DNA of 37,103 nucleotides, taken from a virus (lineage: Duplodnaviria > Caudoviricetes). The stretch covers positions 1-37,103 of the IMG/VR virus record IMGVR_UViG_3300048576_000556. One strand, 5' to 3'. Position 1 is the first letter of the stretch. Each line of letters begins with the position of its first letter. Of the stretch, positions 3,201 through 33,998 are shown piece by piece. Position numbers and translations under genes: made by a program. The notes beneath the pieces were generated by a model that saw only the letters and a program-made list of their open reading frames with translations, did not search any database and was not told the origin of the DNA.

Positions 3201-4509
3201 TAATATAGCGCCTATTAAACGGCACCTTACATTTTCCATCTTTGGCCCAATATATACCAACTTGGCCCGACGGCTTGATTAATTCTTTTTCTTTATATGC
3301 ATATATAATAAGTTCATTCTGGTTTTGCGGATCAGTTTGAGTTGGAAATAAAGCTGATGAGCAGCAATTTATAAAATTTTCAACCCGTGCAATTTCAATA
3401 CCTTCTTCGCGATCAATTTCAATTTTGTAATCGAGGGTTTTACCGATAAAATTCTTGTCATAATCATGCAGATAGTTGCCGTAATCTGGTATAAGCTGCC
3501 ATGCACTTACTGTATTATGCAGCCATCCATCATTTACACGTTCCCATTCAATTGCCAAATCATCGCGCCTTTGCCAATATTCTGTATTGGATAATGCAAT
3601 ACCGGCAGGAACATCGTGCAAAGCCTGATAAACCGTAATACCATCGATATCTCTAACCAGCCAACCTTTCGGCCACGATACAGGTGACCATTCACTGCCG
3701 GCATATATGCCTGCATCTTTCGTAATATCGAGTCTTTCACCTGCCCATAGATGCGGAGGTGTTGACGTTAATTGTATCGCACGTTTTGCACGCCAGCCTC
3801 CCTGCCATGAAATATATTTATCCTTTTGATAACTTTGGTCTTTGACCCATGTATCATAATGGATTTTCGTCTCGCAGCGGCTTGTCGTATTATTGTAATA
3901 AGTTGCAGGCGGCCCATAATCAGAAAGACTCCAATATTCTGTATTGTATGTGCCATCAGTTTTTTTAGGTGCCTGGCCTGCAGGAACATTTTTTACGGCT
4001 GTATAAATATTGCCATCTTCGAGATAGAATTTTCTCACGCCCTGCAAATAGGAATGGCTTGAAACATATTTAGGGTCGGCATTGACCGTATCGAACAGAT
4101 AATATTCATTGCGGCTAAACTCTCTGGTATTTTTCCAGCGCAGCCAGCGGCCTGCATAAGTTTTAACCTGATCATTATTACCACTTTTTGTGCCCATACC
4201 ATGCGAGCGGTCAAACGTGGCAATTTCAAATAAGGCTATATACTTATTAGGAACATCTGTATCCTGCCAATAATCTAAATTAGCTTGGGTTCTAAAGAAA
4301 GGTAGTGCATATTGATTCCACTTAACTACGGCATTGTCATTTTCGGTGTCGTAGCTTCCGGGAAAGGAAAACGATTTTGCTATTAATATCTGGCGTAAAT
4401 CCTCAAAGAGTAGCGAAGATATAACAGGCTTGGCACCTCTGGCAATATCGGCTTTAAATTTCGTCCAATCAGCACGGAGCCAGTAATTCTGTAAAAGCTC
4501 TATACTCAT
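226..4509 (-). CDS. Large modular tail-tip / adsorption protein with CBM5/12-like Trp-Tyr modules
   Basis: 1427-aa ORF, last gene of the tail operon. Repeated motifs such as WQSGMAYRKGTIV, WGQSYNPTDKV and two VPAG...NTEYW repeats. Confidence 0.6.
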   Translation of the reverse strand: MSIELLQNYWLRADWTKFKADIARGAKPVISSLLFEDLRQILIAKSFSFPGSYDTENDNAVVKWNQYALPFFRTQANLDYWQDTDVPNKYIALFEIATFDRSHGMGTKSGNNDQVKTYAGRWLRWKNTREFSRNEYYLFDTVNADPKYVSSHSYLQGVRKFYLEDGNIYTAVKNVPAGQAPKKTDGTYNTEYWSLSDYGPPATYYNNTTSRCETKIHYDTWVKDQSYQKDKYISWQGGWRAKRAIQLTSTPPHLWAGERLDITKDAGIYAGSEWSPVSWPKGWLVRDIDGITVYQALHDVPAGIALSNTEYWQRRDDLAIEWERVNDGWLHNTVSAWQLIPDYGNYLHDYDKNFIGKTLDYKIEIDREEGIEIARVENFINCCSSALFPTQTDPQNQNELIIYAYKEKELIKPSGQVGIYWAKDGKCKVPFNRRYITQPESLGAVFTCDRWDAVLVSDEYAFPQIDAYGILAGWNHWFAGNQYANNGDMLANTPLDIGNWTVNPKAGSNGMCGLQNYAEIILSQAHWRRPASSLYKSNWRRFFFSNKPAEPTVGSIYYDPSDSGLYKYTENGYVGYCENECDNWHDYPDVNDPCWGDNESGFEHFLTELGRYDWAYQIGLQFIPAEICRWAAMTTVGKGSVQYSHLYNYPDTDTCLRGWNCYTESEGTFRKTWQYSLGRHTPFIRDGSKGEPPNLHQTYSPTTFQWDIGNGVHTFSTLPRYAEYPERWFSSLTYTTPLLSHFDDKSMGVTPFKLQGLTWQSGMAYRKGTIVNDGAISYYAKQDITDVVNTPANNQQFGVLPIYTFTVSGNRENNSDVASNVKAGWMLHLCNNINVEVKGNIKSVYILDVRFDEDENVTYITVSDTLKDSDGNYYSLACWSKEVCERHDGMGAFWEKAEDGTITYKIHYYPQPQVLVDLYDILTLATYKEVAPSLSSQTVCVYASGGLYDSVGEIVGAAQSFKNITPDWLDNPVSRFKQLDEGKYANQDVGGIAQCKTHIDWPESPEASWYGWFVKAQWNYKLIKPPEHVLIRLSFTDQLDQYDMHFVGSQSTKGLLEISNRVTTNSNDIRIRYMVASLSSYGTWYSLEPTQWNYRDGWEGTSSWYGDNDMGLGVDLNQKPIIVLDLEIIPQSFMQPTFYHVDVPRGFLLDNKPPVPNRPAHEYNPYAFMKYVLYYEILTDEQKEAIAYWVWGQSYNPTDKVKLCLDGRVHVFEAKATIQNTDIKPINNPDEWQWIKPYVELRLAAKCCECFDAEQSDPIEYKLHCRESDSYETGFSTEREKSILIRTIDVALGDIEENSTTELQTDGNVKIKCSCNYTTGDIIEIIGTRYYDSVYEVVSAGDGWIIIDPAGEYFTEETFTKGCYIINRTTTYTPVDWNGEIFKAYHFAFQAKDNANIVQGVPDNFTEVGFYIMLKAPEDYVSYFDLR

Positions 4510-5555
4510 TGAAATACCGCCATGACCTTGCCATCGACTATCGATATTGTTCTAATCTCAGGTTCACCTACCGGAAGCAGAGTTTCATCGAGATAATACC
4601 GTTTTGTTTGATCTGTTAATATGCGGCTTGTTATTCTTACCCTTGCCCCAACCGGAAAAACTGGTACACAATCTTTAACTAGAATCTCGAAATTATCTCC
4701 TTGTCCGGAACCAAGGGCATATTCAATCTTGATTTCTTCGCAAATATCCCAATCTGTCGCATTTGCATGCGGGGCAATCGATGGATATTGAATTTCTCCA
4801 ACCTTCTTTATATAGACTCTGTTATTATCAGGGTCAATTATCGGTGTGCCTGCAGTATATGGCGGATCATGATTTTCCTGCCATTGCTGGTAGTTACTCG
4901 AATCGAGCCTTACAATATAAAAACCATTGCCTACATATTCAGGCGATGTACTTGCAGCATATGGGTCTTGAAATGTCGGAGCAACAATGATCTTAGCCCA
5001 AATTGTAGTAGCAGTGCTTGTGCCGCCAGAGCCGCCGAACCTTACAATCGCAAGTTTAGTTCCTGTTCCTTGCTCTTTATATAAGATAACAGCTGCACCT
5101 GACGCAGAACTTTCAAGCTGGGTTATGTCACTGTCTTTAATATCAGCAAAACTATGCCCTTCATCTATTATATTAATCTGTACCGCTGTAACCCCTGCAA
5201 CATATGCCCTGCCTATGCAATCGATTCCGATAGGTTCTGCTGTAATTACAAATCTGCCGCTGGCGTGATCTGTTTTAGATGGAGTTACACCAGTTAAAAC
5301 GGTAATTTCTTTAAAGGTATTTGTTGTCGGATCGATTTGGCTGCCACCAATACCGAGAATATTTAATCTGTCAACCGCTGCACCAGTTGTATTTTTTACA
5401 TAAACCATATTTGCAGGCAGCGTTTTACCCGACTCTGTGGTTAAATTATTTTTTCGATTGATGTAGTCCTGTGCGGCATCGATCATGGCGTTATATGTAC
5501 GGGCGGGAATTTTTAATCTCTCACCATCGCGGACTTTTCTAAATGCATCACCCAT
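4506..5555 (-). CDS. Putative tail-tip / baseplate-hub protein
   Basis: 349 aa, overlaps both neighbours, Gly/Ser/Thr linker (GGSGGTST) between two domains; function from position only. Confidence 0.5.
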   Translation of the reverse strand: MGDAFRKVRDGERLKIPARTYNAMIDAAQDYINRKNNLTTESGKTLPANMVYVKNTTGAAVDRLNILGIGGSQIDPTTNTFKEITVLTGVTPSKTDHASGRFVITAEPIGIDCIGRAYVAGVTAVQINIIDEGHSFADIKDSDITQLESSASGAAVILYKEQGTGTKLAIVRFGGSGGTSTATTIWAKIIVAPTFQDPYAASTSPEYVGNGFYIVRLDSSNYQQWQENHDPPYTAGTPIIDPDNNRVYIKKVGEIQYPSIAPHANATDWDICEEIKIEYALGSGQGDNFEILVKDCVPVFPVGARVRITSRILTDQTKRYYLDETLLPVGEPEIRTISIVDGKVMAVFQ

Positions 5556-6382
5556 TAAGCACCTAACCCTAACGCGGCAAAATCGCCAGATTCATAAACT
5601 TGATGGACGTAAACAGCTTTTGGAATTTGAATGAGGCAGTTTTGGTCTGTACTTTTTTCGTATCTGACCCAAAGATACTCCCAGCCTTTTTTCTCAATGC
5701 CTGATATTGAACCGATCGTTATATTAGTTTTGTTCGGGCTTGCAGCAAATTTAAAATTGAGCTCGTAATCACCTGTTCTGCCATGCTTCGAACCCGATGC
5801 CCCCATGAACAATACTTCACCGGCCTCAAAACCATGCCAGGCTTGTGAATTTACCTTACTTGTCAATCTAAAAACGGATGTTTTAAATGCAGTGCTTATA
5901 AAATCGCGAGCAATGCGCTTTGTCTCATTAAAATTAAAAACAGGAACAATAATATCAACGCCATTGACTGAATTATCATCGACATTAATCGCTCCTTTAA
6001 AATCTGGAGGATTATCACCGTATGATCGAACAGTTAGCGGTGCGATTGTTTGAGTAATTTTCTGGCTGCCACCACCTGTATCAAAGCTGAATTCGATATC
6101 ATCAGTTTCTCGACTGTTGTAACCGTAATATACAGTGCCAATCCAGATATTATCAGCTATCTGTTCAACGTCGAAGCCGGCTCGTGGTATTAGGGCTGTG
6201 CCCCATTCTGTTGGGGAGTTTTCCTCAAGGCACAAGATGGCATCGCCATCGTCGCCTGGCTGATTGAATTGTTCCGGCGGTGTAGCTACATCAGGCATTA
6301 TAATATATTCAACCGTTGCGCTTCGGGTGTTGCCGCCGGTCCTTTTTCTGCCTGACCATCTTTCCTGGATACACAATGCCAT
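5555..6382 (-). CDS. Putative distal tail protein
   Basis: 275 aa, beta-rich, directly after the tape measure gene. Confidence 0.5.
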   Translation of the reverse strand: MALCIQERWSGRKRTGGNTRSATVEYIIMPDVATPPEQFNQPGDDGDAILCLEENSPTEWGTALIPRAGFDVEQIADNIWIGTVYYGYNSRETDDIEFSFDTGGGSQKITQTIAPLTVRSYGDNPPDFKGAINVDDNSVNGVDIIVPVFNFNETKRIARDFISTAFKTSVFRLTSKVNSQAWHGFEAGEVLFMGASGSKHGRTGDYELNFKFAASPNKTNITIGSISGIEKKGWEYLWVRYEKSTDQNCLIQIPKAVYVHQVYESGDFAALGLGA

Positions 6383-17835: not shown

Positions 17836-18003
17836 TCATTGTCCGAGCCTCTTTTCCCATGTCGTAAATCTTCGACCACATTTCTTGCATTCTCTTCTAC
17901 GCACCAGTTTCCCATCTGATGCGGGACGTGTATAGATCACTTGAAATTGCCGGCTGCCACATTTCTGACATTCAAATCCTTTTATTCTTTGCTTCGGAAT
18001 CAT
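17836..18003 (-). CDS. Zinc-ribbon protein (NrdR-N / Ogr-Delta-like), candidate late regulator
   Basis: 55 aa with CQKCGS...VIYTR...RRRECKKCGRRFTTWE; ATGA overlap with the terminase stop. Confidence 0.75.
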   Translation of the reverse strand: MIPKQRIKGFECQKCGSRQFQVIYTRPASDGKLVRRRECKKCGRRFTTWEKRLGQ

Positions 18004-20246
18004 TCCTTTGTCCTTTTCTGAATATCTGATAATTTGATTTTTTCCCTTTTCGTAAATGTTTTTACATTGTGCCCGCTTAAACTGCATCCACACATTGATG
18101 CAGCTACCGAGCATCCCACCATGCAATCAAACCAATGATTATCGAGGCCGCCAACTTTTGGTGACCATTGATAAACTACCCTGCCGTGCCCTTCGGTTCG
18201 TACCCAACTTTCAGAACCGGCGATATGCTGGGCGAACAATTCATGCTGATGATTGCTTTTGCCAAAGATTGTCAAACTGCCGTGATCCCCCGCTGCTACA
18301 AAGAACCTTTCATGAACAAATGTCTTCCAATAATTCGTATCAATGGCAACGTGCGTGAACTCTCCAGTTTTATTTATGTTGGGTATATACCAATGATGGC
18401 CGTGCCGCTCTCCCGGCTTTCGTTTGTAGGTTGACATTGGTTTATTTGCGGCTTTGATACCAACACCCTTTGAAGCCATAATCGTTCCGCCAAGTTTATG
18501 GCGGATATTTTCAACAATGCCCGGCATATAACCACTATCAATCAGGCACCGGTCAATTTTCATAACGCTGGTACCTCGGTTCCAGTCTCGATTAAGAAAA
18601 TCGCTGCAGAGTTTCTCTAATCCTGCTTGGATCGCACCTTCTTTTTCCATGCCGTGGTAAATATCCTGCAAACCAATTTGTGCTTTGCGAAGTGTAAATG
18701 ATGCCCTTCTCTGGTCTGGATATGTTCCATAGTCTACAACAAAGCCTGTAAAATCTTCTGACCATGCGCATACCACATAAAAAAGTAATTTATCATGCAC
18801 ATCGATGAACATCGTAAGGTACTGACAGCCCAACGGAACCTCATATCTTTTTCGGCCATTAGTTTTTTCCATAACCTGTTCGATTGTTAAAACCTGTTCA
18901 TCAGTTTGCTCTGCAACCGGATCGTTTTGATATTCGGCATAGAAGGCTGCCTCATCGCGAAGCATCAGGTTCATGGCATGCTGAATCGCAGATATTTCGT
19001 CTTCATTGTGACGCTGCGGCCATGCAACACTACTGCCGCTATCCATGGCGGCCCTATTTTGAATGTAAAATTCTGTTGCTTCTTTACCACCATTGCCGGA
19101 TCTGAGACTATCCGCCCGGATTTCTTCATACTTATCCCAAAGTTTCATATCTGTTGGGAACGCATAAACCATTTTCGTACACTGACCCTGCCATTCAGGA
19201 TTTTTATCTGGATCGAGAATCTGGTCAGCTAAATCATTGCAATAAATCTTTGTACAGGTAAGTAGTCCTGATATTTTTTTGCCAGGTCCTGCCATACCAA
19301 GCACATCACCATTTAATGTGCTCAATCTCTGGCCTGTTTGGTCAGCAGATTTGGCAGATTCTCTTGTTTGCGGATCATCTATTAAAACCAGATCAGGTCG
19401 AATGATCTTGCCATCCATGGTCGTATGTATCTGGCCGCGAATATTTGAATCCAGACTATCAACAGTAATTACAGAACCTGATGCGATGCTGCCTGCAATA
19501 GTTGGAATAACAATTTTATGTGTTCCCCATACTGGATATGTAAGCCTGCCTTCGTATCTTTGGCCACGTTGTTTATGGGCAGAATTTTCCAGGCACTGAA
19601 TTGGATAAATGATTTCAGGGAAATCTGCTAAAAGCAGACTATTGCCCAGCATAGCAGCCTGAACACTTTGAAAAAGATTAAGCGATTGCCGGGTGGCTGA
19701 ACCAATTAAACAAACATATTTCCTTGCGCCAATTAAAATTGCCCATATCGCGGCCGATCTTGTCAGAGCAGATTTACCGCTGCCTCTGGGCATTGCAAAT
19801 GCGAACAAACCTCCATTAAGAACCGATTGTTCTATTTTTGAAATTACCTTTAGATGGTCATCTGACCAGGTTAAATAAAATACATCAGAAAAGTAAGTCT
19901 CGCAAAAGAACCTGAAATCTTTGCACGCTTTTTCTCGGCGATCTTGATTTTCAATCGCTGGAATTTCGCCTATATCCTGAGCTTCTTTGCGTGCGGCATT
20001 TTTAGCGATTAGATCTTTTAATCTTGATTCCTCGACAGACTGTTTCTGCTGTTTTGGTTTTTCATATTCTTTTGCAAGCCATGAGACATAGCGCACAAGA
20101 TTTATATGTTTACCATCACCAATGCGGTATGCAGCAGAATTCATCTGCCAACGAAGTTGATTCTGGCTAAGCACATCGCCAAGCGGCGTTGCGTTCATCA
20201 ATCGAAGCAGCTGTATCTGCGATAATTTATTTACATCAATTGCCAT
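18000..20246 (-). CDS. Terminase large subunit (GpA-like)
   Basis: 748 aa, Walker A PRGSGKS, Walker B VLIDD, nuclease region FIDVH...NHWFDC. Confidence 0.9.
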   Translation of the reverse strand: MAIDVNKLSQIQLLRLMNATPLGDVLSQNQLRWQMNSAAYRIGDGKHINLVRYVSWLAKEYEKPKQQKQSVEESRLKDLIAKNAARKEAQDIGEIPAIENQDRREKACKDFRFFCETYFSDVFYLTWSDDHLKVISKIEQSVLNGGLFAFAMPRGSGKSALTRSAAIWAILIGARKYVCLIGSATRQSLNLFQSVQAAMLGNSLLLADFPEIIYPIQCLENSAHKQRGQRYEGRLTYPVWGTHKIVIPTIAGSIASGSVITVDSLDSNIRGQIHTTMDGKIIRPDLVLIDDPQTRESAKSADQTGQRLSTLNGDVLGMAGPGKKISGLLTCTKIYCNDLADQILDPDKNPEWQGQCTKMVYAFPTDMKLWDKYEEIRADSLRSGNGGKEATEFYIQNRAAMDSGSSVAWPQRHNEDEISAIQHAMNLMLRDEAAFYAEYQNDPVAEQTDEQVLTIEQVMEKTNGRKRYEVPLGCQYLTMFIDVHDKLLFYVVCAWSEDFTGFVVDYGTYPDQRRASFTLRKAQIGLQDIYHGMEKEGAIQAGLEKLCSDFLNRDWNRGTSVMKIDRCLIDSGYMPGIVENIRHKLGGTIMASKGVGIKAANKPMSTYKRKPGERHGHHWYIPNINKTGEFTHVAIDTNYWKTFVHERFFVAAGDHGSLTIFGKSNHQHELFAQHIAGSESWVRTEGHGRVVYQWSPKVGGLDNHWFDCMVGCSVAASMCGCSLSGHNVKTFTKREKIKLSDIQKRTKE

Positions 20247-20439
20247 TATTGATCCTGCGATTTAGCCATGCCGCGTAATTAACCAAATTAATTGTTCCGT
20301 CTGCCGCGACAGGCGCACCCTGCGTGATATGTTTCTGGACAATCTCAACTTGTAATCCAAGCATTTTTGCTGTTGTTTCGGGCGTTAATGCCGCCGGGTT
20401 TATCGAATTTTTAACATTTGTGTCATTTTGTGTGGTCAT
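20236..20439 (-). CDS. Small HTH-like protein, candidate terminase small subunit
   Basis: 67 aa, TAKMLG...GAPVAADGTINLVNYAAWL resembles the gpNu1-type wHTH; overlaps the TerL start. Confidence 0.55.
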   Translation of the reverse strand: MTTQNDTNVKNSINPAALTPETTAKMLGLQVEIVQKHITQGAPVAADGTINLVNYAAWLNRRINNGN

Positions 20440-20499
20440 AAAAATTCCATGTAATTACTTTAAAATAATGCATTTAATGAGTTGCTTTACCATTTTCAT

Positions 20500-21900
20500 T
20501 TAGATAACACATGCATGCCTTAAACGATAATTTTGAAAGGGTAAAAAAATGGCAAAAGAACAAACGGCAAAAGAAGCATATAGAGCAGCCAAGAATGACA
20601 TTGCGAATCTGCTTGATTGGTTCGATTGCGAGATGGGCAAAAATGAACCTAAAGAAATTGACTGGGCGGTGGTTGGCAGTCTCCAGAAAGTTCGATCCGA
20701 CCTGATTGAAGCACTGTCGTCACTTTCAGGATTCGAAGAAAAACAAATCAAAGAATCACTGGAAGAATCAAATGAAAGGACAGGCAAATGAAGATTGAAA
20801 TCACAAAAGGCAAATATAAAGGAATCCGAGGCAGAGTTGTTGGAGTTTATACCGATGGAAGATACGACATCAACGTTATCAAACCAAAATCTAATCAACC
20901 CAAAATCATGGTCATCAAAATTAACACTTGCAAGGAGATATAGAAAATGAGAGTTAAAACTATCACACTCGAAGGCGAAACGGGATTTACGGCAAAAATA
21001 ACCAGAAGCATTCCTACCGAGGGGCTTGAATGTATTCTCTGCGAACTCCTCGATCCAAAAGGAAAACGCGTCTCGGTTCATCATGTCTCTAAAAATGATA
21101 GAGAGGACCAGTTCTCGATGGCTCAATGTATTCAATACCATCTTGATGGATGCCGGGGAACCAATTCGATGATCCATAGCTATTTTAGATATATCATTTT
21201 TTTCGCAGATTAAGGAGGATTGATAATGAACGAAGCAGATATTCAAGAAATTATCACAGATGCCATAGCGGACCAGGATGAAATCACAAGAGTCCGGACA
21301 TTTGAAGAAGCCGGAGTTCTTACGACAAACAATGGACTTGTCATCCGAACAAGCGATGGCAGCGAGTTTCAAATTACTATAGTTCAAAGCAGATAGAAAA
21401 CTATTTTTGAAAGGAACATTACAATGAATAAAGAAGAAATCAAAATCAGTAAAGTTTACGCAATGAAGATCGGCAAGAATACCGTCGGTGTCCGTATCAT
21501 GAGCGAACATAAAGATGGTGGCTGGGTTGGTGTTAATGTCAATACCAGCAAGGAACTGATTATCAGATCCGCCGACAGGCTCATCGGCCTTTACCAAGTT
21601 AAGAAAAATAAATCTGCCCAAACTGAAAACAAAGAACCTGCCAAAGCTGAAACCATCAAACCATCCAAGCAAGGCGGCTTGACTGTCGCCGCCCAAATTC
21701 TTCAGGAAGCAGGACAACCTCTCAATTGTCAGGAGATCGTCAAGCAAATGCTGGAAAAAGGCATGTGGAAAACCGGTGGAAAAACCCCGGCCGCCACAAT
21801 CTATTCGGCAATCATCCGCGAGATCAAAGATAAAGGTCCCGAATCCCGATTCATCAAAACCGAGAAAGGTAAATTTACGGTTGCTAAATAGTAACGCCAT
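20500..21900 (-). CDS. Candidate antisense overlapping ORF (466 codons)
   Basis: SD GGAGGT 6 nt before an ATG that overlaps the methyltransferase stop (TAATG); open across five plus-strand genes; product resembles no known family. Confidence 0.4.
   Translation of the reverse strand: MALLFSNRKFTFLGFDESGFGTFIFDLADDCRIDCGGRGFSTGFPHAFFQHLLDDLLTIERLSCFLKNLGGDSQAALLGWFDGFSFGRFFVFSLGRFIFLNLVKADEPVGGSDNQFLAGIDINTNPATIFMFAHDTDTDGILADLHCVNFTDFDFFFIHCNVPFKNSFLSALNYSNLKLAAIACSDDKSIVCRKNSGFFKCPDSCDFILVRYGICDNFLNICFVHYQSSLICEKNDISKIAMDHRIGSPASIKMVLNTLSHRELVLSIIFRDMMNRDAFSFWIEEFAENTFKPLGRNASGYFCRKSRFAFECDSFNSHFLYLLASVNFDDHDFGLIRFWFDNVDVVSSIGINSNNSASDSFIFAFCDFNLHLPVLSFDSSSDSLICFSSNPESDDSASIRSDRTFWRLPTTAQSISLGSFLPISQSNQSSRFAMSFLAALYASFAVCSFAIFLPFQNYRLRHACVI
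20549..20791 (+). CDS. Hypothetical helical protein
   Basis: 80 aa, AAAGGG SD, ATGA overlap with the next gene. Confidence 0.75.
   Translation: MAKEQTAKEAYRAAKNDIANLLDWFDCEMGKNEPKEIDWAVVGSLQKVRSDLIEALSSLSGFEEKQIKESLEESNERTGK
20788..20943 (+). CDS. Small KOW/SH3-like protein (not in ORF track)
   Basis: 51 aa MKIEITKGKYKGIRGRVVGVYTDGRYDINVIKPKSNQPKIMVIKINTCKEI; AAAGGA SD; IxxGxYKGxxGxV motif. Confidence 0.7.
   Translation: MKIEITKGKYKGIRGRVVGVYTDGRYDINVIKPKSNQPKIMVIKINTCKEI
20947..21213 (+). CDS. Hypothetical protein
   Basis: 88 aa, AAGGAG SD. Confidence 0.75.
   Translation: MRVKTITLEGETGFTAKITRSIPTEGLECILCELLDPKGKRVSVHHVSKNDREDQFSMAQCIQYHLDGCRGTNSMIHSYFRYIIFFAD
21226..21396 (+). CDS. Small acidic phage protein (not in ORF track)
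   Basis: 56 aa MNEADIQ...RTFEEAGVLTTNNGLVIRTSDGSEFQITIVQSR; strong SD TAAGGAGG. Confidence 0.8.
   Translation: MNEADIQEIITDAIADQDEITRVRTFEEAGVLTTNNGLVIRTSDGSEFQITIVQSR
21424..21891 (+). CDS. HARE-HTH (HB1/ASXL/restriction endonuclease winged HTH) protein
   Basis: AAQILQEAGQPLNCQEIV...GKTPAATIYSAI...SRF...GKF signature. Confidence 0.85.
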   Translation: MNKEEIKISKVYAMKIGKNTVGVRIMSEHKDGGWVGVNVNTSKELIIRSADRLIGLYQVKKNKSAQTENKEPAKAETIKPSKQGGLTVAAQILQEAGQPLNCQEIVKQMLEKGMWKTGGKTPAATIYSAIIREIKDKGPESRFIKTEKGKFTVAK

Positions 21901-23120
21901 TACTTTACCTCCCCAACCCTGGCCTCTGCCGGGGTTTTATCGTTAGCTAATTTAGCTTTTTTGCCTGTGAATTGTTCCCATCTAGTTTTTATGACGTCAC
22001 AATACGCCGGATCAATCTCAACACCGTAACATTTCCGCCCTGTTTGCTCGCAAGCAATCAGTGTGCTGCCGCTGCCAAGGAATCCATCAAAAACAATCGC
22101 TCCCGGTATGGAACTATTGGTTATACCTTTTATGCACAGTTCCACAGGTTTCATAGTTGGGTGAAGTTTAGAATTGAGCGGACGATTGATTTCCCATACT
22201 TCTGTTTGGGTTCTATCATCGCCAAAGCTGCTTTTACCAAACCAGCCATAAAAACAAGGTTCATACATACGCTGATAATTTGCCGGCGTTAAAACAAGCT
22301 GCTGCTTTTTCCAAATAATTGTCGCAGACCAGTGGCAGCCCATCCCAACAAGCCATAGTCTCATTCTCATTCCCTCTGGTCCGGATGCACCCCACATGTA
22401 AATATCGCCAGTATTGAATTCCTGAAATATTTCATACATCTTGTGGCAGAAGATACTCCACTCGTCTGTGGACATAGAATCATTTTCAATTGAACGTATT
22501 TTATGGCGGGGATTCTTTGATGCACCATAATCGACATTATATGGAGGATCTGTGAAAATCAGGCCCGCCTTGTCGCCATCCATCAGTTTAATTACATCAT
22601 CACGGTTGGTACTATCGCCACATAATAATCTGTGTTCACCCAACAGCCAAAGATCACCAGGTTTTGTTATAGGTTCGGCCGGAGGTTCCGGTACATCTTC
22701 GGGGTCCGTAAGACCATCTTGTATCCCGGGATCGAGTATTTTGGCAAGCTCGTCACTGTCGAAACCAAGCAGTTCGAGATTAAAATCCATCGACTGCAAA
22801 TCTTTTAATTCGATTGGCAGCAGCTCATAATTCCATTCTGCTATTGTAGCTGTTTGATTATCCGCAATACGATATGCTTTAATCTGGGCTTCTGTCAGAT
22901 CCTGTGCAACATGTACAGGAACTTTTTCCAATCCAAGTCTCTGGGCCGCCTTATAGCGGGTATGACCGACGATTATTATCCCAGCTTTATCAACAACAAT
23001 GGGCTGTCGAAATCCAAATTCCTTCAAACTTGCCATAACTGCCTCAATGGCCTTGTCATTAATGCGAGGATTACTCTCGTATGGCTTTATATCTTCAATA
23101 CTGAATAATTCTATTTTCAT
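21900..23120 (-). CDS. ParB-like N-terminal domain fused to N6/N4 DNA methyltransferase
   Basis: PYESNPR...GFRQPIVVD...GHTR (ParBc); DPPY catalytic motif, HPTMKP and FLGSGS SAM-binding motif (beta order). Confidence 0.93.
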   Translation of the reverse strand: MKIELFSIEDIKPYESNPRINDKAIEAVMASLKEFGFRQPIVVDKAGIIIVGHTRYKAAQRLGLEKVPVHVAQDLTEAQIKAYRIADNQTATIAEWNYELLPIELKDLQSMDFNLELLGFDSDELAKILDPGIQDGLTDPEDVPEPPAEPITKPGDLWLLGEHRLLCGDSTNRDDVIKLMDGDKAGLIFTDPPYNVDYGASKNPRHKIRSIENDSMSTDEWSIFCHKMYEIFQEFNTGDIYMWGASGPEGMRMRLWLVGMGCHWSATIIWKKQQLVLTPANYQRMYEPCFYGWFGKSSFGDDRTQTEVWEINRPLNSKLHPTMKPVELCIKGITNSSIPGAIVFDGFLGSGSTLIACEQTGRKCYGVEIDPAYCDVIKTRWEQFTGKKAKLANDKTPAEARVGEVK

Positions 23121-32735: not shown

Positions 32736-33347
32736 ATGAAACCACTAACAAACAATCAGAAGAAAATCCTAAGTTATATCGAACGTAGTTTTGCTAAGAA
32801 TATTTGCCCAAGTCAACATGAAATGGCTGATCATTTTGGTGTTACTCAGAATGCAATTTGCCAATATATAAACAGCCTGAAGCTAAAAGGATATCTGGAA
32901 GGATACAGCCCTCATAGAGGTCTGAGGTTCACTAAAGAATACGAGGCCGCTAAAGAAAAGGGTACAGGTCTGCCACTTATAGGCAGAATTGCAGCAGGTG
33001 TTCCTATCTTAGCCGAAGAAAACATCACAGACTATATAGATGTGGGAAATATTATAAAAAAACCGCACAAGGATGCTTATATTCTGCAAATTGTCGGTGA
33101 CAGCATGATTGAGGACAGCATCAATGATGGCGACTATGTGATTGTCAAGCCGCAACGTACGATTGAGAACGGCCAAATTGGTGTAGCACTTATCGAAGAT
33201 GAGGCAACAGTAAAAAGAATATATTTTAAAGCCGAAAAGCTGATTCTAAAACCATCAAATCCAAAATATAAGGAAATGGTCTATACACGCGACGATGAAA
33301 ATGTCCGCATTGCAGGGATAGTGATTGGGAGTTTTAGAAGATTTTAA
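32736..33347 (+). CDS. lexA: LexA-family repressor, copy 1 (cleavable)
   Basis: N-terminal wHTH, GRIAAGVPILA cleavage loop, GDSM (Ser) and EATVKR (Lys). Confidence 0.9.
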   Translation: MKPLTNNQKKILSYIERSFAKNICPSQHEMADHFGVTQNAICQYINSLKLKGYLEGYSPHRGLRFTKEYEAAKEKGTGLPLIGRIAAGVPILAEENITDYIDVGNIIKKPHKDAYILQIVGDSMIEDSINDGDYVIVKPQRTIENGQIGVALIEDEATVKRIYFKAEKLILKPSNPKYKEMVYTRDDENVRIAGIVIGSFRRF

Positions 33348-33416: not shown

Positions 33417-33998
33417 ATGCTTCATTACGTTGAACGTAATCTTGCTAATAAAGTTTATCCAACTCAAAAGGAAATGGCAGAACATTTCGGAGTATCTCAG
33501 CATGTGATTTATCAACGCTTAAACAGTTTACGAAAAAAAGGATATCTGGAGAATTGCAGTTTTCGCAGGGGTACATATCTTTCTAAAGAATACCTTGCTT
33601 CAAAAGAAAAATCAGTCGGTTTGCCGATTCTTGGCAGAGTTGTGACACGTACCCCAATTTTAGCTGAAAAAAACATTACCGGGTATATGGATCTAAACAG
33701 CTTTATTAAAAAAGCACATAAGAATGCATTCATTTTAAAGACCGTAGGTGATAGCATGTTTAATGATAACGTCAATAGCGGTGATTACGTTATCGTCAAA
33801 CCACAGAGCACCGTCGAAAATGGTCAAATTGGTGTGGCTGTTATTGAAAATGAGGCAACCGTAAAGAGAATATTTATAAAGGCTGGCAAAATAATATTAA
33901 AACCAGCCAACCGTAAATACAAAGAAATGGTCTATAAACGCGATGATGAAAATGTCTCCATTATAGGCATAGTCATCGGGTGTTTTAGAAGATTTTAG
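33417..33998 (+). CDS. LexA-family repressor, copy 2 (cleavage site lost, N-terminus shortened)
   Basis: Colinear paralog of copy 1; GRVVTRTPILA replaces GRIAAGVPILA; GDSM and EATVKR retained. Confidence 0.85.
   Translation: MLHYVERNLANKVYPTQKEMAEHFGVSQHVIYQRLNSLRKKGYLENCSFRRGTYLSKEYLASKEKSVGLPILGRVVTRTPILAEKNITGYMDLNSFIKKAHKNAFILKTVGDSMFNDNVNSGDYVIVKPQSTVENGQIGVAVIENEATVKRIFIKAGKIILKPANRKYKEMVYKRDDENVSIIGIVIGCFRRF

Follow-up and report, generated by a model that had tools for sequence, protein, structure and literature searches.

Genes of a reverse-oriented cassette ahead of the terminase genes share one codon register in a Planctomycetota prophage family, possibly to keep an antisense frame open for ribosomes

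Introduction

How is a transcript carried to the packaging genes of a phage when a block of genes facing the other way lies in between? The window (the whole stretch of DNA analysed, 37,103 nucleotides of virus record IMGVR_UViG_3300048576_000556) raises this question with a cassette of five plus-strand genes between a methyltransferase gene and the terminase genes, which are on the minus strand. Opposite-direction genes between co-oriented genes are the hallmark of non-contiguous operons, and passages of PMC11034616 treat it as a puzzle that transcription must persist across the untranslated antisense regions of such operons. The features discussed are as follows.

18000..20246, minus strand: terminase large subunit (TerL), gpA type (PF20454, E 1e-12)
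20236..20439, minus strand: TerS-like ORF, 67 aa, overlapping the TerL start, with homologues at the same place
20455..20499, minus strand: mini-ORF of 14 codons, directly after the bridge stop
20500..21900, minus strand: bridge ORF of 466 codons, running antisense to the entire five-gene cassette
20504..20531, plus strand: weak candidate cassette promoter (9/12 match), with the bridge stop just past it
20549..20791, plus strand: cassette gene 1, 80 aa, no assigned function, out of register
20788..20943, plus strand: cassette gene 2, 51 aa, no assigned function, in register (family of 12, all in register)
20947..21213, plus strand: cassette gene 3, 88 aa, no assigned function, in register
21226..21396, plus strand: cassette gene 4, 56 aa, no assigned function, in register (family of 38, all in register)
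21424..21891, plus strand: cassette gene 5, HARE-HTH protein (PF05066, E 2e-16), in register
21900..23120, minus strand: ParB-N / N6_N4 DNA methyltransferase (PF02195, PF01555), whose TAA overlaps the bridge ATG
21907..21912, minus strand: Shine-Dalgarno (SD) motif GGAGGT of the bridge ORF, within the methyltransferase 3' end
21915..21936, plus strand: intrinsic terminator predicted for the cassette transcript, with a 9-bp stem and a T tract found only on the plus strand

The TerS-like ORF matches no Pfam or PHROG family, and its name is a positional label only.

The antisense frame in the window

Read from the sequence, the bridge ORF begins with GGAGGT, a spacing of 6 nt and an ATG whose A is the final base of the methyltransferase TAA, giving the overlap TAATG, and it stops 60 nt ahead of the TerS-like ATG at 20439. 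The remaining two minus-strand frames over 20440-21960 contain 23 and 51 stops. The four genes starting at 20788, 20947, 21226 and 21424 match the register of the bridge exactly and use TCA for none of their 18 serines and TTA or CTA for none of their 15 leucines, whereas gene 1 (20549), thrown out of register by its 4-nt overlap with gene 2, uses TCA for four of seven serines and TTA or CTA for none of seven leucines. The family to which gene 1 apparently corresponds is in register in 29 of 42 cases. For comparison, 18 other long genes of the window have TCA at 113 of 515 serines and TTA or CTA at 204 of 657 leucines. An earlier sequence-only reading of this DNA had described the 466-codon frame, its start and stop, the serine and leucine counts of the in-register genes and the TCA count of gene 1, all of which agree with our re-reading, and had proposed a codon-shuffling null. 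When synonymous codons of the five cassette genes were drawn according to the phage's own codon usage, the frame stayed open in 0 of 20,000 resamplings, with a mean of 9.3 stops. About 8.6 of these expected stops come from the four in-register genes, so that gene 1 contributes little; the analytic probability of an open frame over the four is 4.4e-5.

The product of the frame had been said to resemble no folded family, and our searches likewise returned no Pfam or PHROG match and zero homologues among 6,823 candidates of 256-816 aa. Its structure predicted from the single sequence, without an alignment, has a mean pLDDT of 36.8 and is uninformative. Frameshifting or readthrough from the methyltransferase was considered and rejected, as the bridge frame has its own SD motif and start; an A-run precedes the methyltransferase stop in loci L002-L004 and is absent from the window.

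The open frame in related prophages

We compared 163 dereplicated related loci, the window included, with GC contents of 0.41-0.72; these loci are mutually related and were chosen via one cassette gene. The makeup of the cassette varies widely, with 114 compositions among 149 loci. Nevertheless, 152 of the 163 keep the antisense register free of stops up to a point between -140 and +70 nt of the TerS start: 21 of 21 loci with a GC content below 0.5, 16 of 21 between 0.5 and 0.6, and 115 of 121 above 0.6. If each locus had the antisense-stop rate of its own TerL, and ignoring the register requirement, 0.14, 1.0 and 29.7 open loci would be expected in the three groups. When TerL is clustered at 80%, bridged loci form the majority in 35 of 38 clusters; at 70%, they do so in 13 of 13. 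Homologues thus do not show the frequent stops in this frame that the sequence-only reading had named as telling against it; they keep an SD-led, start-coupled open frame across very different cassettes. The frame stops early in 11 of the 163 loci, which are covered solely by lenient relay chains. We do not count the relay-chain test, passed by 137 of 142 loci, as support because 14 of 38 control loci pass it too.

In this large Planctomycetota prophage family, the backwards cassette genes ahead of the packaging genes are nearly all in one codon register. Adjacent cassette genes share it in 475 of 546 pairs; the corresponding figures are 102 of 390 for lytic pairs and 16 of 97 for pairs in cassettes similarly placed in other phages. 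The cassette spacers, though of many lengths, are nearly all multiples of 3. The HARE-HTH genes of the 163 loci, chosen by homology alone, use TCA for 1 of 1,271 serines and TTA or CTA for 1 of 1,394 leucines (for TerL in bridged loci of low GC, the counts are 106 of 451 and 124 of 578); before dereplication, 206 of the 207 TerL loci with this gene have it on the reverse strand. Of 87 other gene families, 78 are mostly in register as well, among them amidoligase, glutamine amidotransferase, Fic, MazE and DUF7678/4314. An out-of-register Fic gene (L083, L247) is covered by an open frame of its own, 436-441 codons long, that ends on the start of the next bridge, and in L017, which lacks a cassette, the methyltransferase is coupled directly to TerS.

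Could codon usage, GC content or shared ancestry have produced the open frame without any selection on it? Exact antisense frames contain few stops at high GC, where 8 of 121 TerL genes are fully open in this frame, and the relatedness of the loci and their choice via a single gene point the same way. However, all low-GC loci are open where 0.14 were expected, control cassettes of similar GC are closed, and the register, spacer and SD signals are left unaccounted for; a shadow of codon usage should be as open as is typical of the genome and lack start signals and register, which is not what we see. We regard this explanation as very improbable. A readthrough polyprotein of the cassette genes was also rejected, as it leaves the loss of TCA, TTA and CTA unexplained.

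Tests for selection on the encoded protein

A true overlapping gene, encoding a protein with a function of its own, would account for the SD-led start and the depletion of stops, and the low-GC loci provide further indications: fourfold-site saturation is slightly lower in the cassette genes than in the methyltransferase (0.78-0.82 versus 0.87-0.89), antisense changes are milder (BLOSUM -0.52 versus -0.81/-0.88), and 18 of 96 columns are nearly fixed among 11 amidoligases. These values hint weakly at a slight residue constraint on the product at low GC. However, the bridge varies from 172 to 1,827 codons across the many cassette compositions, its product is without family or homologue, and mean antisense residue conservation is 0.48 both in the bridge and in the TerL shadow. 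Variability of fourfold sites at conserved columns is 0.88 of expectation (0.89-0.91 in controls), and at high GC it is the controls that show the milder antisense changes (-1.01/-1.09, versus -1.19 in the bridge frame), so that purifying selection or reduced synonymous variation is control-like at high GC and faintly signalled at low GC. An overlapping gene is therefore quite improbable in our estimation. Given the range of lengths and a residue conservation no better than that of a control shadow, selection would seem to act on an open, initiated frame and not on the protein sequence.

The antisense genes olg1 and olg2 of Pseudomonas aeruginosa, as presented in passages of PMC8850804, are similar in being long antisense ORFs with stop depletion beyond codon-shuffling nulls, and the bridge shares with them a length beyond the null, stop depletion across homologues and translation start signals. 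However, olg1 and olg2 lie within a single mother gene, are taxonomically narrow and are constrained at both synonymous and non-synonymous sites. The bridge extends across many exchangeable genes with their spacers, with a tenfold range of length and no clear residue constraint. Two signals that are usually merged in calling an overlapping gene functional are separated here: stop depletion and start signals are strong, and residue constraint is not detected. The bridge may represent an ORF selected for the act of translation alone.

Proposed translation and possible function of the bridge

The best explanation, and on balance a probable one, is that the frame is translated as a ribosome escort, which would prevent Rho polarity and hand ribosomes on to the terminase genes. 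One transcript would run from the methyltransferase to TerS and TerL, and ribosomes would re-initiate on the bridge frame at the methyltransferase stop and translate it into a disposable polypeptide. Their cover on the lytic transcript would keep Rho from ending the RNA inside the backwards cassette, and they would be handed to TerS where the bridge stop overlaps its start. A gene could then stay in the cassette only if it is in register and without TCA, TTA and CTA, or if it comes with a second coupled bridge. The sequence-only reading had proposed such a ribosome bridge, and all of its sequence-level predictions have held; avoidance of Rho, the purpose it assigned to the bridge, is something that we, too, infer.

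In 91 of 138 loci the bridge start is coupled, lying at +2 or -1 relative to the stop of the upstream gene, and an SD motif is present at 81 of these 91 coupled starts compared with 181 of 1,820 background positions. At the other end, the bridge stop lies at -8 or beyond, relative to the TerS start, in 90 of 152 loci and overlaps an in-frame TerS start in 38 of 152. In 20 of 21 loci of the low-GC group, to which the window belongs, it falls 21-86 nt before TerS. Of the 62 loci whose bridge stop lies upstream, only 14 have an SD motif for TerS; it is therefore conceivable that TerS has a promoter of its own in the AT-rich junction. Relay to TerS via the mini-ORF was rejected since this ORF is not conserved: an ATG beside the bridge stop is missing from 10 of 21 low-GC loci.

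The main alternative is that translation mainly silences the cassette, with the ribosome-coupled lytic polymerase winning head-on collisions and sweeping the cassette promoter upon induction. The bridge does continue beyond the start of the first cassette gene and enters the promoter region (in the window, its stop is 49 nt beyond the ATG of gene 1), and some cassettes carry toxin- or defence-like genes (Fic, MazE). The candidate promoter by itself is not significant, because 16 promoter-like sites were found where shuffles give 9.2 +/- 3.6. Portions of two studies add to the case for silencing: a longer antisense ORF caused more interference in a synthetic system (10.1101/2020.09.23.310730), and prophages of S. 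aureus silence a defence gene through non-contiguous operons and collisions (PMC11087260). However, for most cassette genes no harmful function is known, and stops that reach the TerS start region, or overlap the start itself, extend farther than silencing requires. We consider silencing as the main function unlikely, though it is compatible with ribosome escort; the two differ in which output is selected.

Translation might also guard the lytic mRNA after transcription, with ribosomes stripping off annealed cassette mRNA and blocking cleavage upstream of terS by RNase III or single-strand nucleases. This would produce the same sequence pattern, and transcription would run on both strands across 1.4 kb, given the predicted cassette terminator (fold z -2.79; 0 of 200 shuffles equally stable). 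Against it, the effect in phage 80alpha persisted without RNase III according to a legend in PMC11087260, and collisions were dominant in the synthetic system in the sections of 10.1101/2020.09.23.310730 on this point; both concern different hosts. We consider RNA protection improbable. From sequence, escape from Rho would look no different from cassette interference, coupling to TerS or RNA protection.

A broader proposal could well be true, although we stop short of calling it probable: a sequence-free 'ribosome bridge', a translated antisense frame under selection for openness alone, may have replaced protein antitermination in this phage family, forcing dozens of horizontally exchanged genes into register, purging three codons, securing terminase, silencing the cassette on induction and, in some lineages, tagging the junk product for degradation. 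No antiterminator of the Q, N or NusG-like families was found among the window proteins and upstream cluster representatives scanned.

Comparison with known systems

Our search of the literature returned no natural precedent for such a bridge, and no cultured phage or plasmid has this TerL over 80% of its length, leaving no named experimental model. The non-contiguous operons of S. aureus and phage 80alpha (PMC11034616, PMC11087260) likewise nest one or more opposite-strand genes; these have their own transcription signals, for which the window offers a predicted terminator and a weak candidate promoter, and in prophages the operons are tied to the switch between lysogeny and lysis. The passages of these papers on the operons describe no bridging ORF, whereas here an open, SD-led frame, recognized in DNA sequence, spans the antisense region; it may offer a natural answer to how RNA polymerase gets across kilobases of antisense DNA that is not translated (the puzzle of PMC11034616). 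In parts of 10.1101/2020.09.23.310730, an ORF extended antisense through a gene in a synthetic E. coli construct raised the processivity of RNA polymerase, and synonymous stops abolished the effect. In this engineered ribosome-protected transcriptional interference, too, an antisense ORF keeps the polymerase coupled against Rho and represses the opposing gene; it is synthetic, with one reporter in E. coli, whereas the bridge is natural, covers 1-11 called genes and is conserved over a phage family. A common register, missing TCA, TTA and CTA codons and a coupled start provide a signature for predicting such operons computationally.

The Rho-shielding uORFs tnaC, speFL and cruR, as covered in portions of PMC12360218, are alike in that a ribosome on the ORF blocks Rho and downstream genes are transcribed. 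They are short leader peptides that stall conditionally, whereas the bridge is hundreds of codons long, operon-internal and antisense to genes, and lacks a conserved peptide. Host MAGs encode the factors needed, Rho above the cut-off in three of five and NusG in all five. Some observations weigh against ribosome escort. A bridge is not the sole solution, as the similarly placed cassettes of other gpA-type phages are open in 1 of 38 cases, that of AcaML1 not being open. Where a reverse AbiEii gene follows TerL, as a second site of this kind, only 5 of 11 loci keep the frame free of stops. The bridge region is pyrimidine-rich in all GC groups, and C exceeds G, as expected of Rho loading sites, only at low GC (C-over-G skew of 1.07 for the bridge versus 0.80 for TerL; 0.97 versus 0.97 at high GC).

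The Locus and Its Host

The window encodes an integrase, two LexA-like repressors, replication genes, an HNH protein, a ParB-methyltransferase, a gpA-type terminase and a lambda-family portal and capsid, and represents a temperate phage, on a record of 37 kb. Its long genes (32443 to 226) all lie on the minus strand, with the exception of five small plus-strand genes, to which the bridge, a minus-strand ORF of 466 codons, is antisense:

20549-21891, plus strand: five small genes (the cassette)
21915-21936: predicted cassette terminator, inside the methyltransferase 3' end and directly adjoining the Shine-Dalgarno (SD) site of the bridge

Among the matches listed, the nearest relatives of the terminase (85-96%) are found in Planctomycetes/Phycisphaerae MAGs, and the remoter ones mainly in Phycisphaerae and Planctomycetia; because these relatives sit in planctomycete MAGs, the host of the phage is probably a planctomycete. 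The two repressors are similar peptidase S24 proteins in tandem (32736-33347 and 33417-33998). An NrdR-type zinc-ribbon ORF (17836-18126) overlaps the end of the terminase large subunit gene (TerL), and a gap of 220 nt then separates it from the head genes; the two are a candidate late activator and operon boundary.

Conservation of the Open Frame

From at least 354 loci plus the window, 291 contained the TerL N-terminus. Dereplicating these at 95% reduced them to 243, of which 169 have a HARE-HTH cassette gene, and removal of one same-strand HARE-HTH match and five loci without a TerS match gave 163. This set is a sample conditioned on one cassette gene. The sequence-only reading had expected the frame to stay open in homologues despite different cassettes, and this is what we find: cassette contents differ widely, and in 152 of the 163 loci, window included, the frame antisense to the HARE-HTH gene meets its next stop within -140 to +70 nt of the TerS-like start. 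The frame is open in 21/21 loci below 50% GC (0.14 expected from each locus's own TerL), in 16/21 at 50-60% (1.0 expected from TerL) and in 115/121 above 60% (29.7 expected from TerL). Loci from named genomes are bridged in 41 of 44 cases, and bridged majorities occur in 83/94, 35/38 and 13/13 TerL clusters at 90%, 80% and 70% identity, respectively. The codon-shuffling null model that had been proposed gave the same answer, as synonymous resampling of the window's cassette genes regained an open frame in 0 of 20,000 trials. The open frame is thus real, conserved and beyond composition, and its origin by chance is extremely unlikely. Seven family members that lack a HARE-HTH gene (L021, L058, L062, L284, L289, L290, L295) likewise have a chain of long lytic-strand ORFs between the methyltransferase stop and TerS, which may represent bridges or just ordinary genes.

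The 653 called cassette genes fall into 88 families, with 114 compositions in 149 loci; identified families include amidoligase, glutamine amidotransferase, Fic, MazE, DUF7678, DUF4314 and DUF6900. Cassettes this varied, with recognizable families, show that the reverse genes are real. Neighboring cassette genes share a register in 475/546 pairs (160 loci, bridged and unbridged) versus 102/390 lytic pairs, and 78 of the 87 families other than HARE-HTH are mostly in register. Spacers are mostly 3, 12, 15, 18, 24, 27, 30 nt and longer, and overlaps of 4 nt or 1 nt are seldom seen (14 pairs). Register counts depend on our small custom hexamer/SD caller, which overlooks some real genes (e.g., window gene 3, and the HARE-HTH gene itself in three loci); open-frame counts are independent of it. 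Across all 163 loci the HARE-HTH genes use TCA for 1 of 1,271 Ser and TTA/CTA for 1 of 1,394 Leu, and other A-ending fourfold codons are equally frequent in cassette genes and controls. Rechecking the window bore out everything first stated about its frame, start, register and codon counts.

Start, End and Product of the Bridge

The bridge start codon overlaps the stop of the upstream gene at +2 or -1 in 91 of the 138 bridged loci for which an upstream gene was called. These coupled starts (70 ATG, 17 GTG, 4 TTG) carry an SD motif in 81/91 cases versus 10% of background positions. In several uncoupled loci the SD-led start lies a few bases further on, or the caller overlooked an intervening lytic-strand ORF. 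The Fic gene of L083 and L247 is out of register, and an open frame of its own runs across it and stops on the SD-led start of the main bridge. The antisense register of Fic genes at the methyltransferase stop was stop-free in all four loci examined (L083:1780-3092; L247, oriented 4298-5625; L272; L274), three of which have, about 30-45 nt into the Fic 3' end, an SD-like word and a start codon. The bridge stop overlaps an in-frame TerS start in 38/152 loci, lies at -8 or beyond in 90/152 and at least 90 nt upstream in 7/152; in cassette-less L017 the methyltransferase stop itself overlaps the TerS-like start.

One could assume that the bridge is an overlapping gene with a functional protein. 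However, coupled bridges vary from 172 to 1,827 codons (n=91), and fourfold-site variation at conserved HARE-HTH columns is 0.88 of expectation versus 0.91 for TerL, 0.89 for the methyltransferase and 0.91 for TerS. Antisense residue conservation averages 0.48, identical to the TerL shadow, and at high GC the saturation of low-identity pairs is 0.94 versus 0.92. In favor of a protein, low-GC cassette genes are slightly less saturated than the methyltransferase (0.78-0.82 versus 0.87-0.89) and show milder antisense changes, and a small set of amidoligases has 18/96 columns close to fixation. All of these measures are tree-free pairwise counts. Weak constraint on bridge residues is therefore possible, but the bridge does not qualify as a protein-coding overlapping gene, and a functional product is very unlikely. 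Selection favors an initiated open frame whose sequence is of little or no account.

A C-terminal Ala-Ala can act as a ClpXP degron. It ends 18/152 bridge products (e.g., L070, L075, L081, L083, L084, L102, L151, L272), about ten times background, although not that of the window. At high-GC loci the counts are 16/112 for bridges versus 1/102 for TerL, 2/112 for TerS, 6/102 for methyltransferases and 4/529 for cassette genes, and these ends are spread over about 10 of 99 end clusters. They possibly represent a degradation tag or a by-product of SD spacing.

A Proposed Ribosome Escort and Its Alternatives

The reading we lean toward builds on the original proposal, in which one transcript would span the cassette to the terminase genes and ribosomes translating the bridge frame would escort lytic transcription against polarity; in our reading these ribosomes would also hand on to TerS. 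It is favored because untranslated antisense transcription is suppressed by Rho across studied bacteria (PMC12360218), host MAGs encode Rho and NusG, and an engineered antisense ORF increases processivity and interference, both reversed by synonymous stops (10.1101/2020.09.23.310730). Against it we count the 11 unbridged loci, a C>G skew in the bridge region at low GC only, and the possibility that TerS has its own promoter in the AT-rich junction of the low-GC group (window included), where the bridge stops 21-86 nt short of TerS in 20/21 loci. Alternatively, bridge translation might silence the cassette, which we consider unlikely, or protect the RNA, which is quite improbable. The core common to these three readings taken jointly, that translation itself is the function, is very probably correct. 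Host MAGs also contain a second Rho-like ORF (G001:C120, G002:C67, G004:C200, G005:C2) in which the first 40-50 profile positions are missing and whose score falls short of the TIGR00767 cut-off.

The locus would work much as a non-contiguous operon does, with a Rho-shielding ORF running across it; it differs from leader-peptide attenuators, among which the bridge does not qualify. The untranslated antisense stretch is named as the intriguing aspect of such operons in PMC11034616. In the largely open-access literature searched, including this and the other papers compared (10.1101/2020.09.23.310730, PMC11087260, PMC7457138, PMC12360218, PMC8850804), we came across no naturally occurring antisense ORF that forms such a bridge.

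Control Phages and a Second Reverse Insert

As controls we used DUF6900-bearing reverse cassettes of other phages (GC 0.58-0.65; neighbors match Pseudomonadota records), flanked by a methyltransferase and, downstream, a long ORF that we treated as the terminase. Only 1/38 is open, the longest frame covering a median 31% of the stretch, whereas by a similar measure it covers at least 95% in 85/142 of the planctomycete-type set; gene pairs in control cassettes share a register in 16/97 cases. Acidithiobacillus phage AcaML1 has the same architecture without a continuous antisense frame. Since nearly all of these cassettes are unbridged, the bridge is lineage-specific, and phages of other lineages solve the problem, or sidestep it, by different means. 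In AcaML1 an unannotated DUF6900 homologue (L438:6504-6980) is encoded antisense to the 5' portion of the gene annotated as small terminase. DUF6362, a candidate antiterminator, is found upstream of the methyltransferase in unbridged controls (L384:12837-13232 and six other loci) and does not appear in the list of the 30 largest upstream clusters of the bridged family.

Some members carry a reverse AbiEi/AbiEii toxin-antitoxin pair between TerL and portal (L059, L274, L324, L341, L439-L449). Its AbiEii antisense register is stop-free in 5/11 loci (with two near-duplicates among them) and interrupted by 1-6 stops in the rest, which we count against ribosome escort. Apparent relay ORFs occur at this insert in L274 and L324, and the site after TerL may be an operon boundary.
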